From IMG/VR virus record IMGVR_UViG_2687453530_000003: a DNA stretch of 22,189 nt; one strand, 5' to 3'. A program made the translations under genes and the position numbers. How positions within the stretch are numbered: position 1 is the stretch's first letter; each line of letters opens with the position of its first letter. The DNA comes from a virus. Its lineage: Duplodnaviria; Heunggongvirae; Uroviricota; Caudoviricetes. Of this stretch, positions 1 to 20,859 are shown in pieces. The notes below the pieces were generated by a model. That model made no database searches, was not told the origin of the DNA, and saw only the letters and a program-made list of their open reading frames with translations.

Positions 1-584
1 ATCATCCACCCAACTTAACTGAAACCAGGATGAAGTATATGCATATAAAGTTCACTTTGCCAAACTTCAGTATAAAAAACCACATAAAAAATAGGGTGTG
101 ATAAAAAATACCGTAACAATAAAGCAAAGGATTATAAATTCCGTTACAGTTACAAATGATACTCAAGAAACAATTCCTTAGGAAAAACTTATTTACAGCC
201 AATAAGTAAGACACTTATATGATATCAAGTTTTCATAAAACATAACTAGGCTAAATAGCTGCGCCTAATACCGCTACACTTTTGCCAGCCCATGTTTGCC
301 TCCGGGTATTGACCCCTTCTCTACGCAACTTCAGTTCCCACCACCAACTTTGCGGCAGCTTTGTAGGATCAATGTCTAAAAGAATAATGGTGACCGATAA
401 GAAAACAACTGAATAACTGCAAATTTTCGCTCAAAACCTTCCTGTCAGATCCATAGCGAATCAAGTGCTGAATGTCACAGTATCGAACAGAAAACAGTGA
501 CGATCTAACCCTTCAAGAATATTCTACGATTGTTCTGTTTAGGAAAAGCAAGGCGGGAAGTCGGGAGATAAGTCATTGATAAAG

Positions 585-645
585 TGGCGGAGAGAGGGGG
601 ATTTGAACCCCCGGTAGAGTTGCCCCTACTCCGGTTTTCGAGACC
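585..645 (-). tRNA. 3' fragment (~61 nt) of a tRNA-Ser (serU/CGA-like) gene; the 5' half is absent, so this is an att-core-like remnant, not a functional tRNA
   Basis: Reverse complement reads GGTCTCGAAAACCGGAGTAGGGGCAACTCTACCGGGGGTTCAAATCCCCCTCTCTCCGCCA, matching the anticodon-stem-to-CCA end of E. coli tRNA-Ser(CGA) as recalled; the sequence 5' of it does not match the tRNA. Confidence 0.6.
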
Positions 646-1388
646 GATGATACAGAGTCGAAAAATCAAAGAGTTAAAAATTTTTCTTGGAATAAATGTC
701 TTAAAATCGTACACGAAAAATCAATGAATTACATAACATTAAAGAAGAATATTCCAAGCCTTCTTGAGGCTACCACCTGTTTTCAGGTGTCATTCAGACG
801 TGATTTGCCCCAGATTGGGAAAGCACGCTTTTTTCTCAGCTATCGTCCTCTTATTTTGCCGTTACATTTCTTTTTGCACTCTAATGATTAATTTACAATA
901 ATAATATCGGTAATTATTGAGTAATAATAAATTGGTTATTGCAAATGTAATTTAATTCCATCTTCGCGTTATATTCCAATCTTTAATCTCCGCATGGAAC
1001 AAGTTGCATGCGTGACTATATTAAGACAACTTATAACCACCAAAACATTTGCTTTGCAAGCAAAAACATTGACCATTGACTCTAAGAAAATTCCGATCTA
1101 TTGTTAGGGTCATCAAAGTTACTTAACAGTATTCCGAAATGAAAATACAAAGCAAGCTAATTGTCTTATTAAACATTATCATTGCATTTATATTATTTGA
1201 GCTTTTAGCTCAAAAATTTGGTTTGAGTACATTATTTTAAAGCAAGATAAACAATATCGGGCACTCTAGTTTTTATAATTAACAATTAAACGTCCATAAA
1301 ATGTTATTTACTTTTCTTCGCTATTGTCATATCTTAATATAGTGGCTTACGCCACTCTACTTTCATCACATTTTGTACGTTTATGTAC

Positions 1389-1419
1389 TCGCCATGAAGC
1401 TCTTTCATGGCGATTTTTT
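1389..1419 (+). terminator. Rho-independent terminator: perfect 10-bp stem, 5-nt loop, T6 tract
   Basis: tcgccatgaa-gctct-ttcatggcga followed by tttttt, read directly. Confidence 0.5.
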
Positions 1420-1685
1420 ATTCTTAATCCAAGAACATACTCCCTACCTATAGCAAAATCACTTTTTGAACAAAAGAATAACGTATTTAGGTAATCATTA
1501 CGAATTTACCCTATAGGTGCTACTGGCCATTCAATATCCGGTGCAGTTGTTGTATTAACACGGTTCAGCAACACCCGATACTTTTTCCAGGCTTCCAGCA
1601 ACGAGTTTTCTTCCTCCGTTGCGATCTCCAGCCCAACAACAGTCTGAACGTACCGGGAACAGCCTCCTTCAGGGCTTGAAGGATA

Positions 1686-3938
1686 TCAATGTTCGCTTCC
1701 TGTTAACTGCCGGACAAGTGCAACCAGTTCGCTTACCTGATTTTCCAGAGTGCTGATCCGGGTGCCTGCTGTTGCCAGATTTTTACGTAGCGTTATGTTT
1801 TCCTCTTCCAGCGCGGTAACGCGACCATCTGTTTCACGGGCGACCTGAACAAGTAACCCCGTCACGGCGGCGTAGTCAACATTCAGATAACGTGTTTCTT
1901 CACGTAATTCATTGCCGTCAACCGTTGGTCCCTGCAACTCTTCACCGTAATGAGTAAACGATCCCACAGCTTCTGGTATCGCCTCCATTACTTCCTGTGC
2001 AATAACGCCAGCATAAGGCATCCCGTTTTCCCTGAGCGTGTAGGTGTATCCGTTCATTTTACGGATTGCTTTCGTCGCGTCGCTGATAACGAGAATATCG
2101 TCTTTAAGGTCGCGGTCTGATGACTGATTCAGCGTTGTGCAATTAATAGCGCCATTTACATCAAACAACTGGCCTGCTGACGTTTTTTGCGCATAAAACA
2201 GATACGCAGCAGACGTTCCAACCTCAAAAACGTTTTGTCGATCACTTGATCCCCATACTTTTGCGGCAAATGATAGTTCTGTATTACCTAAGTTCTGTAA
2301 AACAAAACGATTTCCAGTCCCTGTTTGTTTTGTAAGAGTTAAATCAACAGTTGAGTTAACCTCATCCTTGTTGATAGTGAGCGCCTGCGCTTTAGCCCCG
2401 TTAACAGCACCTGTTTTGAGTTGAACCGCGCCGTCATTACCATTTAACAGTATCTCAGCTCCGCTAAAGAAATTTTTTAGCGACAGCATCTTACTTACGC
2501 CGACTGATGAACCCAACGCCCACGCGAGAGAATTACCGGTGCTATCAAACCCACGTACAAAGCAATCCATTTTGCTATAGTCTGACGTGCTTCCAAGGAC
2601 ATCAATTCGCCCTCCGCCAGATTTTACCGGGTTAGATGTGGTTAATGACCTGACAGCAAGATCGGTAGATGAATTGAGATCGTCTACTGTTAGTAATTTC
2701 TTCCATTCCTGCGTCGTTCCATTTTCAATTGTTCTTCCCCAAAAACCGGAATTGCGGCCTCCGAACTGCACAGCATAATTTTTACTAAATTGAACATGAA
2801 TGCCGCCAAGAACCATAGAACCTGCCGGGCCGTTTGTACTGCCTGCAATTGGTATAAATTTATTAATGTTATCAGTATGCTGCGTGTTCCAGTCTCGTCC
2901 TGTTTTTGTAAGCAGTCCTAATGTCGTGTCGAGCGCTTCGGTTAAAGTAAGGTTTTTAAATTTAACTGCGCTACTTTCGCCAAGACTTAAGTTGTTTCGC
3001 GCATCTTCTACTGTTGTCGCACCTGTACCTCCTTGCCCAACAGCTAATGGCAACCAGCCAGTGCCATTATGACAACCCCACAAACCAGATTTGGAAACCT
3101 GTAAGCGTGGTGCGCCTGAAGAATACGTAGAATATACGTAAGTTGTTTCTTTTCCCTCTTCAACCCTTTCTGTTGATACATCTCTCTTCCATTCAGACCA
3201 GGTACCGCTTCCTCCTTCATATATTCGTCTATAAGTAATTCCCGGATTATTATAAGGGTAGTACACCTGAACGCAGGAAGAAGCAGTGTTGGCTCTCGTT
3301 TGGAGCACTATTAAAGCGCCCGCCAGACCGATTGGGTAATTTAATTCTTCTGTTGCGTAAGCGCTCGTTGGTTGTTGATAGAAACCAGAATATTCACCGG
3401 TAAGGGTGTTTAGGTCAGTATTAGCAAGGCCAGCTTTTTGCTCATACATTACCCGCAAGTTCGCACGTGCTTGCTCGATAGTTCTTCCACCAGTACCGCC
3501 CTGGGCTAAACCTAACGGAGACCATTGTCCAGAAGAAGAATCATAAACTCCCCAACTCCCGTTAGTATGGATTTCAAAGAAACGATCACCAGTTGGACCA
3601 TACATACGAGTTGTTGATTCATTTTGACCAAAGCGGCTTAATTCATCTCTGCGGGTATGACGTATCCATTGCGGGCCAGAACTTTGGCTGTAAATGTACG
3701 AATACAATGATTTTGTATCTGAACCAACAAATAGACCGGAATATCTTTTTGTTGACACTTCTGATCTAACTATATAACCAGAAATAAGATTATCACCGGC
3801 ACTAGACGCTACTGATGGATAACCTTTCGCTGAGATGTAAATCCTGACAAATCCAATATAACCTGATGGCTCAACAGAGATATCAGTGCAGGTCAGCCCC
3901 CCACGCCAGAGACGTGTTGCTGTGGCGACCGTCATCAC
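1686..3938 (-). CDS. Tail fibre protein fragment with C-terminal intramolecular chaperone (peptidase S74-like) domain; probably 5'-truncated, with the true N-terminus replaced at a junction inside lom near position 3890
   Basis: 750-aa ORF with GGTG-x-T-x-E-x-AR-x-NL fibre repeat motifs and a C-terminus (DRDLKDDILVISDATKAIRKMNGYTYTL...) typical of self-cleaving fibre/endosialidase chaperone domains; the first ~16 codons overlap lom out of frame. Confidence 0.7.
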   Translation of the reverse strand: MMTVATATRLWRGGLTCTDISVEPSGYIGFVRIYISAKGYPSVASSAGDNLISGYIVRSEVSTKRYSGLFVGSDTKSLYSYIYSQSSGPQWIRHTRRDELSRFGQNESTTRMYGPTGDRFFEIHTNGSWGVYDSSSGQWSPLGLAQGGTGGRTIEQARANLRVMYEQKAGLANTDLNTLTGEYSGFYQQPTSAYATEELNYPIGLAGALIVLQTRANTASSCVQVYYPYNNPGITYRRIYEGGSGTWSEWKRDVSTERVEEGKETTYVYSTYSSGAPRLQVSKSGLWGCHNGTGWLPLAVGQGGTGATTVEDARNNLSLGESSAVKFKNLTLTEALDTTLGLLTKTGRDWNTQHTDNINKFIPIAGSTNGPAGSMVLGGIHVQFSKNYAVQFGGRNSGFWGRTIENGTTQEWKKLLTVDDLNSSTDLAVRSLTTSNPVKSGGGRIDVLGSTSDYSKMDCFVRGFDSTGNSLAWALGSSVGVSKMLSLKNFFSGAEILLNGNDGAVQLKTGAVNGAKAQALTINKDEVNSTVDLTLTKQTGTGNRFVLQNLGNTELSFAAKVWGSSDRQNVFEVGTSAAYLFYAQKTSAGQLFDVNGAINCTTLNQSSDRDLKDDILVISDATKAIRKMNGYTYTLRENGMPYAGVIAQEVMEAIPEAVGSFTHYGEELQGPTVDGNELREETRYLNVDYAAVTGLLVQVARETDGRVTALEEENITLRKNLATAGTRISTLENQVSELVALVRQLTGSEH

Positions 3939-4380
3939 TTCCGGTCAGCACATCGTGCGTTTTCCCCTTATTGTCAGTTACGCGGATATAATCCCCGGAA
4001 AAAGTCGACACACGGCTGTAAGCCACACCCGCCATCGCATACGCGCTGAACCATTCATTCACGCGCACAGACGGCCCCGCCATTACGCTGAACCAGCGGT
4101 TACGAACGGAATCTTCATGCCAGCGGGTATCGCTGTAACGGGTCAGCTGACGATTCTTGTCTCCTGCATAGCTGAATGACGTCACCATCCCCAGTGTGTC
4201 CGTAAACTCATAACGGTATTTCACGTTAATCCCGTTCAGATCATCACTGCCGGGAACGTTCGTCCGGGCATGAAGATACCCCGCGCTCAGCGTGGACTGA
4301 TGTTCAGACGCCCATGCAGGCGCACCGGATACGGCCAGACAAATGGCTGCGGACAAAATGGCGGCATAAAGTTTACGCAT
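3883..4380 (-). CDS. lom: Lom/Ail-family outer-membrane protein, C-terminally truncated (165 aa versus ~206 in lambda; lacks the terminal aromatic beta-barrel signature)
   Basis: Signal peptide MRKLYAAILSAAICLAVSGAPAWA and near-identity to lambda Lom through ...NTSLAWGA, then divergence and a stop. Confidence 0.8.
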   Translation of the reverse strand: MRKLYAAILSAAICLAVSGAPAWASEHQSTLSAGYLHARTNVPGSDDLNGINVKYRYEFTDTLGMVTSFSYAGDKNRQLTRYSDTRWHEDSVRNRWFSVMAGPSVRVNEWFSAYAMAGVAYSRVSTFSGDYIRVTDNKGKTHDVLTGSDDGRHSNTSLAWGADLH

Positions 4381-4446: not shown

Positions 4447-6401
<1,955 letters not shown>

Positions 6402-6427
<26 letters not shown>

Positions 6428-10972: not shown

Positions 10973-12055
10973 ATGAAAAAATTAACAGTGGCAATTTCTG
11001 CTGTAGCTGCATCAGTACTGATGGCGATGTCTGCTCAGGCAGCTGAAATTTATAATAAAGACAGTAACAAGCTGGATCTGTACGGGAAAGTTAATGCCAA
11101 GCACTACTTCTCCTCTAATGATGCAGATGATGGTGATACTACTTATGCCCGTCTTGGCTTCAAAGGTGAAACCCAAATCAACGATCAACTGACTGGTTTC
11201 GGTCAGTGGGAATATGAATTCAAAGGCAACCGCGCTGAATCTCAAGGTTCCTCCAAAGATAAAACCCGTCTTGCCTTCGCTGGCCTGAAATTCGGTGACT
11301 ACGGCTCCATCGATTACGGCCGTAACTACGGTGTAGCATACGACATCGGTGCATGGACCGACGTTCTGCCAGAATTCGGTGGCGATACCTGGACCCAAAC
11401 AGATGTATTCATGACTGGTCGCACCACAGGTGTTGCAACTTATCGTAACAACGACTTCTTTGGTCTGGTTGATGGCCTGAACTTTGCAGCTCAGTATCAG
11501 GGCAAAAATGACCGAAATGAAGTAACTGAAGCTAATGGCGATGGTTTCGGTTTCTCAACTACTTATGAGTATGAAGGATTCGGCGTGGGTGCAACCTATG
11601 CTAAATCTGATCGCACTAATAATCAGGTTATCTACGGTAACAACGGTCTGAATGCTTCTGGTCAAAATGCTGAAGTATGGGCAGCTGGTCTGAAATATGA
11701 TGCGAACAACATCTATCTGGCCACCACCTATTCTGAAACCCAGAACATGACTGTTTTTGGTAATAACCATATTGCCAACAAAGCACAAAACTTCGAAGCT
11801 GTTGCACAATATCAGTTCGACTTCGGCCTGCGTCCATCCGTTGCTTACCTGCATTCTAAAGGAAAAGACTTGGGTGTTTGGGGTGATCAGGACCTGGTTG
11901 AATATGTTGATGTAGGTGCAACCTATTACTTCAACAAAAATATGTCCACTTTTATTGACTACAAAATCAACCTGATTGATAAGAGCGATTTCACGAAAGC
12001 ATCTGGCGTTGCTACCGATGATATCGTTGCTGTAGGTATGGTTTACCAGTTCTAA
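10973..12055 (+). CDS. nmpC: General porin of the OmpC/OmpF family, phage-borne NmpC/Lc type (lysogenic-conversion moron)
   Basis: 360 aa, signal peptide [30 protein letters not shown]..., C-terminal ...VAVGMVYQF; sits on the strand opposite the lysis genes as in DLP12. Confidence 0.9.
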
Positions 12056-17796: not shown

Positions 17797-18702
17797 CTAT
17801 ATTTCCAGACATCTGTTATCACTTAACCCATTACAAGCCCGCTGCCGCAGATATTCCCGTGGCGAGCGATAACCCAGCGCACTATGCGGATGCCATTCGT
17901 TATAATGCTCGAACGCCTCTGCAAGGTTCTTTGCTGCCGTTAACCCGTCTGGTTTGGGCATGATACTGATGTAGTCACGCTTTATCGTTTTCACGAAGCT
18001 CTCTGCTATTCCGTTACTCTCCGGACTCCGCACCGCCGTGTTCTTCGGTTCAAGTCCCAACATCCGGGCGAACTGGCGTGTTTCATTAGCCCGGTAGCAT
18101 GAACCATTATCCGTCAGCCACTCCACTGGAGACGACGGAAGATCGTTGCCGAAGCGGCGTTCCACCGCTCCCAGCATGACGTCCTGTACTGTTTCACTGT
18201 TGAAGCCGCCGGTAGTGACCGCCCAGTGCAGTGCCTCACGATCACAGCAGTCCAGCGCGAACGTGACACGCAGTCTCTCTCCGTTATCACAGCAGAACTC
18301 GAACCCGTCAGAGCACCATCGCTGATTGCTTTCTTTCACGGCCACTCTGCCTGTATGTGCCCGTTTCGATGGCGGTACAGCAGGTTTTCGCTCAAGCAAC
18401 AGCGCATTCTGGCGCATGATCCGGTAAACACGTTTGGCATTGATCGCAGGCATACCATCAAGTTCTGCCTGTCTGCGAAGCAGCGCCCATACCCGACGAT
18501 AACCATACGTGGGCAGCTCTCCGATAACATGGTGTATACGGAGAAGCACATCCGTATCATCAGTGTGACGACTGCGGCGGCCATCCATCCAGTCATCGGT
18601 TCGTCTGAGAATGACGTGCAACTGCGCACGCGACACCCGGAGACAACGGCTGACTAAGCTTACTCCCCATCCCCGGGCAATAAGGGCGCGTGCGCTATCC
18701 AC
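17797..18702 (-). CDS. insD: IS2 transposase OrfB (InsD; DDE catalytic domain, expressed as an OrfAB fusion by -1 frameshift)
   Basis: 301 aa, [34 protein letters not shown].... Confidence 0.9.
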
Positions 18703-19025
18703 TTTTTTGCCCGTCCATATTCAACGGCTTCTTTGAGGAGTTCATTTTCCATCGTTTTCTTGCCGAGCAGGCGCTGGAGTTCTTTAATCTGCTTCATGGC
18801 GGCAGCAAGTTCAGAGGCAGGAACAACCTGTTCTCCGGCGGCGACAGCAGTAAGACTTCCTTCCTGGTATTGCTTACGCCAGAGAAATAACTGGCTGGCT
18901 GCTACACCATGTTGCCGGGCAACGAGGGAGACCGTCATCCCCGGTTCAAAGCTCTGCTGAACAATTGCGATCTTTTCCTGTGTGGTACGCCGTCTGCGTT
19001 TCTCCGGCCCTAAGACATCAATCAT
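18660..19025 (-). CDS. insC: IS2 OrfA (InsC; HTH DNA-binding regulator)
   Basis: [53 protein letters not shown].... Confidence 0.9.
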
Positions 19026-20771: not shown

Positions 20772-20859
20772 TGATTTTATTTTGACTGATAGTGACCTGT
20801 TCGTTGCAACAAATTGATAAGCAATGCTTTTTTATAATGCCAACTTAGTATAAAAAAGC
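20772..20859. other. attL: attL: P' arm plus 15-bp lambda core (core at 20845-20859, TTAGTATAAAAAAGC, reverse complement of GCTTTTTTATACTAA)
   Basis: Core read directly; the P' arm sequence ATGATTTTATTTTGACTGATAGTGACCTGTTCGTTGCAACAAATTGATAAGCAATGC matches lambda attP P' as recalled. Confidence 0.85.

Follow-up and report, generated by a model that had tools for sequence, protein, structure and literature searches.

A tRNA-Ser fragment in the cargo arm of a lambda-site prophage as the likely fossil attR of a serU-integrating phage

The lambda-bio and lambda-gal transducing phages arise by imprecise excision, which leaves a hybrid att site and adjacent bacterial DNA in the phage genome, and Escherichia coli K-12 carries tRNA pseudogenes at the ends of its cryptic prophages, pauD at DLP12 and ptwF at CP4-6. 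The serU/yodB locus is the integration site of the Sakai prophage Sp14 and of the Stx1d prophage of O121:H7 (PMC8190617, PMC9729726), and PatE, PsrA and PsrB are prophage-encoded AraC-like regulators of EHEC, of which patE (z0321, OI-8) has been reported at the thrW prophage (PMC10877973). Here we analysed a stretch of 22,189 nucleotides of tailed-phage DNA (IMG/VR record IMGVR_UViG_2687453530_000003, Caudoviricetes; hereafter the window), and in particular its first 1,686 nucleotides. We consider it likely that this part is a mosaic, non-essential cargo arm, equivalent to the b region of lambda, of a defective prophage at the lambda attachment site, and that a piece of tRNA-Ser within it is the fossil attR junction of a lambdoid phage that integrated into serU.

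The stretch is internal to the lambda-site prophage and not alongside it. The attL core lies at 20845-20859 on the minus strand, between int and ybhC, where an earlier note on this DNA had placed the lambda core of one prophage end; a second core, attR, matching at 14 of 15 bases, lies 1,755 bp to the left of window position 1, outside the window and beside ybhB, so that the two cores bracket 1-1686. The note had described the stretch as next to a lambda-type prophage and had suggested that its fragment comes from a different integrative element or a graft; neither the first statement nor an element end beside the prophage agrees with a second prophage end 1.75 kb further left. Its description of the region as AT-rich with short ORFs only is accurate: 1-1686 has 36.2% GC against 46.7% in the rest of the window, and the longest ORF wholly contained in 1-1505 encodes 70 amino acids. 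The stretch borders the start of the prophage late genes, with the gene of a side tail fibre (1686-3938, annotated as 1686-3896, minus strand) that carries a C-terminal Peptidase_S74 chaperone domain, followed by a C-terminal remnant of a tail-fibre-assembly (tfa) gene at 1506-1637 of the minus strand (ORF 1506-1640). The remnant matches PHROG tail-fibre-assembly families at E-values of 1e-12 to 1e-19, is annotated as a partial tfa pseudogene, and is overlain by a sub-threshold Rfam match to IS009; at both permissive and gathering thresholds, Rfam found nothing in 1-1505.

The tRNA fragment occupies 585-646 on the minus strand and is identical at 62 of 62 nucleotides to positions 29-90 of K-12 serU, which encodes tRNA-Ser(CGA), including the CCA end, an exact match of a length that excludes chance as its source. 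The copy reported earlier, of 61 nt at 585-645, is thus real and exact, and one base longer than described. It comprises the anticodon arm, the variable arm, the T arm and the 3' strand of the acceptor stem with CCA, while the 28 nt at the place of the 5' half show no match to serU, as was also claimed. The earlier reading would have fallen had the fragment failed to align to a tRNA-Ser 3' end or belonged to a complete, functional tRNA gene; the fragment does align, and ARAGORN predicts no tRNA in the whole window. A complete cloverleaf requires the acceptor 5' strand and the D arm, and only serU 29-90 is present, so that 585-646 is not a functional tRNA-Ser gene; it is an att core together with the displaced 3' half of the host tRNA.

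What lies on either side of the core identifies the kind of junction. In O111 strain RM9322, a genuine attR (5662-6197 of locus L004) is 97.2% identical to the window over 307-841 and has yodB on one side and nleC and a tail-fibre gene on the other; in other genomes, too, arm, core and yodB flank adjoin at the genuine attR. The piece accordingly consists of a phage arm at 647-841, the P arm of serU-integrating lambdoid phages, which in RM9322 runs straight into the core and then the yodB flank; the core; and 278 bp of bacterial DNA at 307-584, the B' flank, which correspond to the chromosomal spacer that immediately follows serU on its yodB side. These 278 bp adjoining the core had been overlooked at the first reading. 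In line with this, KU052038, the record of the SerU-LTIIb prophage, has the identical 62 nt at attR, annotated as a pseudo tRNA-Ser. Together with the match of 307-841 to a genuine attR next to yodB in RM9322, this annotation supports two earlier proposals: that the fragment derives from the att site of an element integrating into a tRNA-Ser gene, and that the left portion of the window was grafted in by recombination.

The B' flank is 96.4-96.8% identical to the yodB-serU spacer of K-12, APEC O78, O111 and the LT-IIb host strain; over 307-646 as a whole, the identity is 98.8% with the serU locus of isolate CB6886 and 97% with that of K-12. When positions 1-945 were used as a query, 5,422 of 5,426 E. 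coli genomes gave a match, which in the sampled rows usually covered 307-646 and lay under an annotated tRNA-Ser. One may still ask whether the fragment is a decayed tRNA gene borne by the phage, or a phage attP, with the 278 bp being phage DNA that happens to resemble the host spacer, given that lambdoid prophages often carry tRNA genes and that the attP for a tRNA site holds the 3' half of the tRNA. We regard this as very improbable, as almost all E. coli genomes, among them K-12, which has no prophage there, possess a matching spacer downstream of serU. The genuine attL of RM9322, moreover, has unrelated DNA after serU: the integrase gene follows within 52 bp and the 278 bp are absent, which rules out the 278 bp as the int-proximal phage arm. 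Finally, the allele of the fragment is that of the host: at the RM9322 attL (the one lysogen compared), the tRNA 3' copy supplied by the phage has two paired changes in the variable arm that are absent here. From the attL layout and the tRNA allele it follows that the piece in the window is of the attR type and not an attP. An attR-type relic is thus recognised by tRNA identity from the anticodon arm to the 3' end, a phage arm on one side, DNA from downstream of serU on the other, and the host allele, all of which are found here.

The junction shares with the attR of serU prophages (Sp14, Stx1d and SerU-LTIIb, KU052038) the 62-nt fragment, the yodB-side flank and the arm 647-841, seen in several genomes. 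Unlike these, it lies away from the serU locus, in a lambda-site prophage, retains only 278 bp of the flank, is fused to an AraC-family gene, and has neither a partner attL nor a cognate integrase. No serU-type integrase is encoded in the window, where the only Int is of the lambda type and about 25% identical to a serU-prophage Int fragment, and in the near-identical APEC O78 genome the intact serU is about 1.25 Mb away. The proposed search for an intact tRNA-Ser gene and a direct repeat consequently delimits no island, and with serU distant, Int solely of the lambda type and the lambda cores bracketing the region, the fragment is not a current element boundary. It resembles pauD and ptwF in being a partial 3' tRNA copy left by site-specific integration, and differs in that those mark the border of an element at the original tRNA locus, whereas the serU fragment has been displaced into another phage. 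As a tRNA fragment it is an ordinary relic, of a junction type that is already known.

The junction also travels in phage genomes. Three phage genome records, ev099, mEp332 and PhiR70_1, are about 99% identical to the window over 1-1686. This segment is placed there between tfa and a lambda-type attP and int, and the series runs from stf and tfa through the AT-rich stretch, the tRNA fragment, the AraC gene and IS remnants to attP and int. Bacterial DNA contiguous with a hybrid att site, the footprint expected of imprecise excision, is thus found inside three phage genomes. A module consisting of the AraC gene, the 306 bp in front of it, the 278 bp and the core further recurs in O157:H7, where it lies in a prophage at thrW, and in UPEC85 and BE311. 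The 278 bp of the module copies group together (98-99% identical) and differ by 3-4% from the resident chromosomal copies. A pattern scan with one genome per species returned no matches.

These records bear directly on whether the junction could have formed without a phage genome, by a large chromosomal inversion or translocation between a serU prophage and a lambda-site prophage. APEC O78 would offer material for such an event, as it carries inverted copies of about 1.4 kb that are 99.2% identical and about 1.25 Mb apart (window 307-1719 and L013 4242-5654). The phage genome records that carry the whole module nevertheless refute it, and the same module in prophages at thrW in O157:H7, the presence of only 278 bp of bacterial DNA rather than a chromosome arm, and the 3.2% divergence of the captured 278 bp from each of the two resident copies of that genome all point the same way; we hold a rearrangement of this kind to be hardly credible. 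The comparison with lambda-bio and lambda-gal is closer: as there, phage genomes carry, near att and int, a hybrid P-core-B' site that continues into bacterial DNA originating from one flank of the former integration site. The captured piece is, on the other hand, very small and non-coding, an integration module of different specificity has since taken the place of the old one, and the excision itself is one that we infer.

At its other end, the captured junction meets, at 306/307, the 5' region of a gene for an AraC-family regulator, to which it is fused. This gene, annotated in APEC O78 and GZM7, encodes a PatE/YdeO-like protein of 247 amino acids and begins with an ATG immediately to the left of window position 1, outside the window; 1-306 (minus strand) is its 5' flank and probably, as a putative assignment, its regulatory region. 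It contains a promoter-like site running from 63 to 34, a match to the consensus only, and a Shine-Dalgarno-like GGTGGA, and it travels with the gene in O157:H7, UPEC85, BE311, ev099 and mEp332. That 1-306 belongs to the AraC gene had been overlooked at the first reading. The protein has HTH_AraC and HTH_18 domains, and its best NCBIfam match, to YdeO, lies below the family cutoff. With an AraC-type C-terminal helix-turn-helix, a length of about 250 amino acids and a position in a prophage cargo region, it has the features of the PatE/Psr group, and, like patE, the gene in O157:H7 sits in the thrW prophage, in the cargo region beyond the tail fibres. Identity with PatE is putative and drawn from position and annotation, and the gene lies outside 1-1686. 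We considered whether the AraC gene had been captured from the neighbourhood of serU together with the 278 bp and rejected this for the one lineage checked: the serU locus of CB6886, which is the closest in sequence (98.8%), lacks the gene and the segment joined at 306/307, and K-12-type homology runs on past that point in this lineage.

The sequence of events that we favour for the fossil attR would have three steps. A serU phage would first have recombined in the serU anticodon arm, leaving the displaced 3' half of the host tRNA beside its tail-fibre-distal arm (647-841). Imprecise excision of the lambda-bio kind, or some comparable illegitimate join, would then have moved this arm, the 62-nt core and the 278 bp into a phage genome, replacing the int side, and the captured flank would have become fused at 306/307 to the PatE-like AraC gene and IS remnants. 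The integration module would also have been exchanged, with the lambda-type attP and int beyond, so that the phage line would integrate at the lambda site (ybhB/ybhC). Imprecise excision is the most likely mechanism of capture, and this the most likely order of events; an intermediate phage with a serU-type int beside the captured flank was not among the fetched loci.

Today the fragment is inert, neither a tRNA nor a prophage border, with no cognate integrase nearby, and is passively carried. In the past, the core evidently served as a crossover point between phage arms. In the O157:H7, UPEC85 and BE311 copies of the module, homology to the window ends exactly at 646/647 and a different arm follows. 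This second arm, which carries a GIY-YIG gene, was sought at genuine serU attR sites and not found there; it was found at the inspected thrW and ssrA prophages, at ssrA joined to only 18 nt of the anticodon stem-loop. The APEC O78 serU locus, in turn, retains a stump of the phage end seen in the window, 1.07 kb long and nearly identical, so that exchange between the lambda-site and serU loci within a genome is possible and could have shaped the sequence to the right of the core.

Such a pattern might suggest that the core, which holds a nearly complete anticodon stem-loop, is still active as a secondary att site for serU-specific integrases and acts as a recombination hotspot, at which serU phages could insert into resident lambda-att or thrW prophages or swap arms with them. 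Two unrelated arms abut the module, with homology breaking off exactly at 646/647 (O157:H7 and UPEC85 as against the window), the second arm alone is joined to the serU anticodon stem-loop in prophages near ssrA, and in APEC O78 the identity to the serU stump is 96.8% on the left of the core and rises to about 99.8% on its right. Earlier events at the true serU locus could equally have produced this pattern, however, as could homologous exchange in the 62-66 nt that are shared, and we saw no tandem prophage integrated at this core and no serU-type integrase in the window. Continuing activity of the core as a hotspot therefore strikes us as improbable, and a passively carried fossil attR remains our preferred reading.

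To the right of the phage arm, a short, very AT-rich linker at 842-942 (25.7% GC) is common to close relatives of the module only. It is followed by a conserved block at 943-1505 (plus strand), just distal to tfa, that is present in many lambdoid prophages, at prophage ends next to ydfJ, sitD and serU as well as in lambda-att phages, and that has the appearance of one small transcription unit. The unit comprises a promoter-like TTGACT-17-TATTGT at 1076-1104, an ORF of 33 amino acids at 1139-1240 and, at 1389-1413, a terminator hairpin with a run of T after it, all on the plus strand; promoter and terminator are consensus matches, kept in a divergent copy. The ORF, overlooked at the first reading and absent from the RefSeq and phage-record annotations viewed, keeps its 33 codons in every one of the 56 copies that include the start. 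Compared with the GF50 copy, which is 79% identical, it shows 18 nucleotide differences and only 5 amino acid differences, for a dN/dS of about 0.09 that indicates purifying selection, and none of 20,000 random-substitution trials did as well; three diverged lineages were available for these comparisons. Judging from this conservation, 1139-1240 is probably the gene of a hydrophobic small protein, for which it is a candidate and in which one membrane-spanning stretch is predicted. The mRNA is structured (z = -4) and its 3' UTR long and conserved; no obvious Shine-Dalgarno sequence was found.

Nine ORFs of the stretch were compared with Pfam and PHROG, and only the tfa remnant at 1506-1640 matched. 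Besides 1139-1240, eight short ORFs in 1-1505, including one of 55 amino acids at 724-891, have no Pfam or PHROG match; the ORF 724-891 is annotated in the ev099 record and was treated as spurious, because it spans the mosaic boundary at 841. The earlier statement that the stretch holds no convincing gene thus stands for the other ORFs and fails for 1139-1240, with its dN/dS of 0.09 and conserved frame. The peptide of 1139-1240 itself has no match in Pfam or PHROG and no similarity to any known family. A phmmer search of 1.84 billion representatives retrieved only the peptide and one frameshift variant, Rfam has no match for the unit, and a full-text literature search for the peptide returned nothing. 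With 33 amino acids, a membrane stretch, a putative promoter and terminator of its own and a structured mRNA, it resembles phage cargo 'morons' and type I toxins of the Hok, Ldr, TisB and ZorO types. It shows no sequence similarity to a known family, and no conserved antisense promoter was found at the unit; a fold-back between the start-codon region and the 3' UTR is predicted, at weak support, with only 2 compensatory pairs and a covariation term of about 0. Two bolder readings, that 1139-1240 encodes an undescribed membrane peptide of 33 amino acids with a role of its own and that the internal serU core is still used by serU-type integrases, we consider rather unlikely.

Were the core indeed still in use, incoming phages could enter prophages already in place and exchange entire arms with them at a fixed position, and lambdoid mosaicism would have a site-specific route. 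A true gene at 1139-1240 would mean that many lambdoid prophages, irrespective of where they integrate, encode at their tail-fibre-distal end a 33-amino-acid membrane peptide, which could act as a toxin or as a modulator of superinfection or of the membrane; the conserved 33-codon ORF gives small-protein work a concrete candidate. The near-identical inverted copy of 1.4 kb at the serU locus could serve as a substrate for large inversions, and for annotation the locus teaches that a partial tRNA within a prophage need not be an element boundary. The stretch provides a clean and datable footprint of the uptake of bacterial DNA and of a change of integration specificity in temperate phages: a hybrid att site with 278 bp of chromosome persists in phages that now use the lambda site, beside a regulator related to the acid-resistance activator PatE.

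The window is identical (100%, BLAST) to chromosomes of E. coli, avian and others, such as GZM7, NC19 and XB2, and matches that of APEC O78 except where the tail-fibre gene has an indel. It is a defective lambdoid prophage occupying the lambda attachment site. Next to ybhC are int-xis and, at 20845-20859, an exact lambda core; a second core, identical in 14 of 15 bases and accompanied by the expected bacterial flank, lies beside ybhB, 1,755 bp left of position 1. The stretch 1-1686, which the earlier note had set next to a lambda-type prophage, therefore lies inside it, between the tail-fibre gene and attR, in a place corresponding to that of the dispensable b region of lambda. Left of position 1 follow, in order, a 247-aa AraC-family gene (minus strand), IS3-family remnants and attR. 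The prophage is defective because all head and most tail genes are deleted; at 4447-6427 (minus strand), a direct fusion connects the C-terminal portion of tail-tip protein J with the N-terminal portion of the large terminase. The same ybhC site is used by Sp3 (PMC8190617, PMC9729726).

Several other features accompany this setting. The tail fibre (1686-3938, minus strand) carries a C-terminal Peptidase_S74 self-cleaving chaperone domain, although a tfa remnant comes after it; at the 5' end the fibre gene overlaps a truncated lom gene (3895-4380, minus strand), and in APEC O78 the fibre gene is ~1 kb longer, a difference that suggests a recent replacement or deletion in the fibre. An OmpC/NmpC-like porin gene (10973-12055, plus strand) has the lysis genes on one side, a truncated Q antiterminator on the other and DLP12-like neighbours (essD, rrrD, rzpD, bor, ybcV, ybcW and ylcI), an IS2 copy (17797-19025, minus strand) sits in the early-left region upstream of xis and int, and the lambda cIII thermoregulator RNA element (RF01804, 13382-13440, plus strand, 88.5 bits) is the sole above-gathering Rfam match in the window.

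The first 1.7 kb are indeed AT-rich, as the earlier note had described, with 36.2% GC against 46.7% in the remaining window. The tRNA-Ser fragment reported there at 585-645 is also real, extending one base further: 585-646 (minus strand) is identical over all 62 nt to positions 29-90 of K-12 serU, the tRNA-Ser(CGA) gene, and spans the anticodon arm, the variable arm, the T arm and the acceptor 3' strand with CCA, while the 28 nt ahead of it show no match to the tRNA 5' half. It is not part of a complete tRNA gene; ARAGORN called none in the whole window.

Local BLAST against fetched loci resolved the stretch into a mosaic. Positions 1-306 are present wherever the AraC gene occurs; 307-584 are a 278-bp chromosomal spacer found directly downstream of serU towards yodB; after the serU 3' part, 647-841 form the phage arm that adjoins the fragment at the genuine attR of serU lysogens. 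A linker of 25.7% GC (842-942), a block found just past tfa in many lambdoid prophages (943-1505) and a remnant of the tfa C-terminus (1506-1637) complete the series, up to the tail fibre from 1686. A query with 1-945 was matched in 5,422 of 5,426 E. coli genomes, the match typically being 307-646 under an annotated tRNA-Ser in the rows sampled.

Sakai Sp14 and a Stx1d prophage both occupy serU/yodB, a site of lambdoid insertion known from the literature (PMC8190617, PMC9729726). In O111 RM9322, the gene order is yodB, spacer, fragment, the arm 647-841, nleC and tail fibre, and the SerU-LTIIb prophage record annotates an identical 62-nt pseudo tRNA-Ser adjoining yodB. At the opposite end of the prophage in RM9322, the intact serU is separated by 52 bp from the 3' terminus of the integrase gene, the DNA beyond CCA is unrelated to the 278 bp, and the functional serU (locus L068, 25307-25396) is a hybrid whose phage-supplied 3' half differs from K-12 serU in the variable arm by two paired, compensatory substitutions. 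These are absent from the window fragment, which keeps the unaltered host sequence. Because the integrase end lacks the 278 bp and carries the altered variable arm, the reading of the fragment as an attP is ruled out; judged by these alignments, 307-841 form an attR (P arm-core-B' junction) with its real bacterial flank. The proposal that a serU-integrating element left the fragment as a grafted att relic is thus upheld by the arm and spacer at the RM9322 attR, whereas its role as an element border is not: it is an internal fossil in the cargo arm of a lambda-att phage. The lambda-type window integrase (356 aa) shares only ~25% identity with the serU-prophage integrase fragment.

The AraC gene, the 306 bp, the 278 bp and the core also occur together in UPEC85, BE311 and the O157:H7 lambdoid remnant at thrW, the Sp1/CP-933H region. 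In all three, homology to the window stops exactly at 646/647, beyond which lies another arm, encoding a LEM-3-like GIY-YIG gene. In APEC O78, the stump at the serU locus is 96.8% identical to the window left of the core and about 99.8% right of it. Since these breaks fall at the core edge, they indicate that exchange has occurred there, which could have been mediated by integrase or by homologous recombination within the common 62-66 nt. Prophages near ssrA also have the GIY-YIG arm attached to serU anticodon stem-loop sequence. In these (loci L066 and L067, both 4983-5000), the arm abuts only ~18 nt of the stem-loop, beside a restriction-modification pair; the junction may be what is left of an attP or may have arisen by secondary-site recombination.

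Within 1-306, the minus strand has a promoter-like site (63->34), and the ATG of the AraC gene is preceded by a Shine-Dalgarno-like GGTGGA. The gene product contains HTH domains of the AraC type and resembles YdeO most closely, at a score under the YdeO family cutoff. PatE, an activator of acid-resistance genes, is placed on OI-8 in a review (patE, z0321; PMC10877973), and from the O157:H7 position we infer that the AraC-family gene corresponds to it. An origin of this gene by capture from around serU finds no support in CB6886, the closest lineage examined.

Three phage genome records contain 1-1686 at ~99% identity, Lambda_ev099 (NC_049953), mEp332 (PV340541) and PhiR70_1 (PV340577), with coverage reaching 1648 in ev099 and 1631 in mEp332. 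These last two share the order J, lom, stf, tfa, AT-rich stretch with the fragment, AraC gene and IS remnants, followed in ev099 by a lambda-type attP, int and xis. Bacterial DNA joined to a hybrid att site therefore sits in phage genomes, an architecture shared with specialised transducing phages of the lambda-bio type, although the phages carrying this module now have an integration module of another specificity. The 278-bp copies in such modules (window, ev099, O157:H7 and UPEC85) are 98-99% identical among themselves. Chromosomal copies from K-12, APEC O78, O111 and the LT-IIb host, 99.6-100% identical to one another, differ from them by 3-4%; the chromosomal copy of isolate CB6886 reaches 98.8% over 307-646. 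This pattern agrees with one capture event, in a different lineage, and later dissemination by phages. A piece of chromosome beside an att relic points to imprecise excision, by which a serU-integrated phage would have taken its host flank along with the att junction; a later change of integration site would have made the phage line one of lambda-att type.

The resident serU locus of APEC O78 (NC_020163.1; 4093-6164 of locus L013) has a 427-bp spacer plus serU 3' part in duplicate, flanking a 1.07-kb prophage stump that corresponds to window 647-1719 and joins the spacer inside the final 34 bp of the tail-fibre gene. Relative to the window copy, ~1.25 Mb away, this one has the opposite orientation, and the two are a possible inversion substrate. 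An origin of the junction by large-scale inversion between a serU prophage and one at the lambda site is nevertheless unlikely, given that the flank is only 278 bp, that the module is present in phage genome records and that the captured 278 bp differ in sequence from both resident copies.

The earlier note had found no convincing gene in the stretch. This holds for most short ORFs, which are noise (the longest entirely inside 1-1505 has 70 aa), but not for a 33-aa ORF at 1139-1240 (plus strand), encoding MKIQSKLIVLLNIIIAFILFELLAQKFGLSTLF. It is preceded by a promoter-like TTGACT-17-TATTGT (1076-1104), followed by a terminator, an 11-bp hairpin and T run (1389-1413), and lies unannotated but conserved in many lambdoid prophages, at their tail-fibre-distal end. 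All 33 codons are intact in 56 of 56 start-containing copies, from E. coli loci and 48 IMG/VR contigs, the latter fetched by a 3' UTR pattern that inflates the apparent conservation of the 3' UTR. Selection was analysed over three diverged lineages only. Against GF50, the most diverged copy (79% nucleotide identity over 351 bases), the ORF shows 18 nucleotide and only 5 amino-acid differences (dN/dS 0.09), an outcome with an open frame and at most 5 amino-acid changes that none of 20,000 random-substitution trials reproduced; the third lineage adds 4 synonymous changes and 1 non-synonymous change. The sole promoter-like site and plus-strand terminator of the diverged copy are both homologous to those of the window. 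The mRNA is predicted to be well structured (z = -4), with a predicted pairing of the start region and 3' UTR that finds little covariation support. The ORF is likely to be a real small-protein gene. Its strongly hydrophobic peptide had no homologue outside its own cluster among 1.84 billion representatives and no Pfam or PHROG family match; it may act as a membrane-active cargo protein or a type I-like toxin.

Relics such as this fragment, and imprecise excision as their mechanism, are well known; the literature searched gave no account of this particular combination of AraC gene, spacer and core. The main interest lies in the clean footprint left when host DNA was captured and the integration site later changed, together with a conserved, unannotated small ORF.
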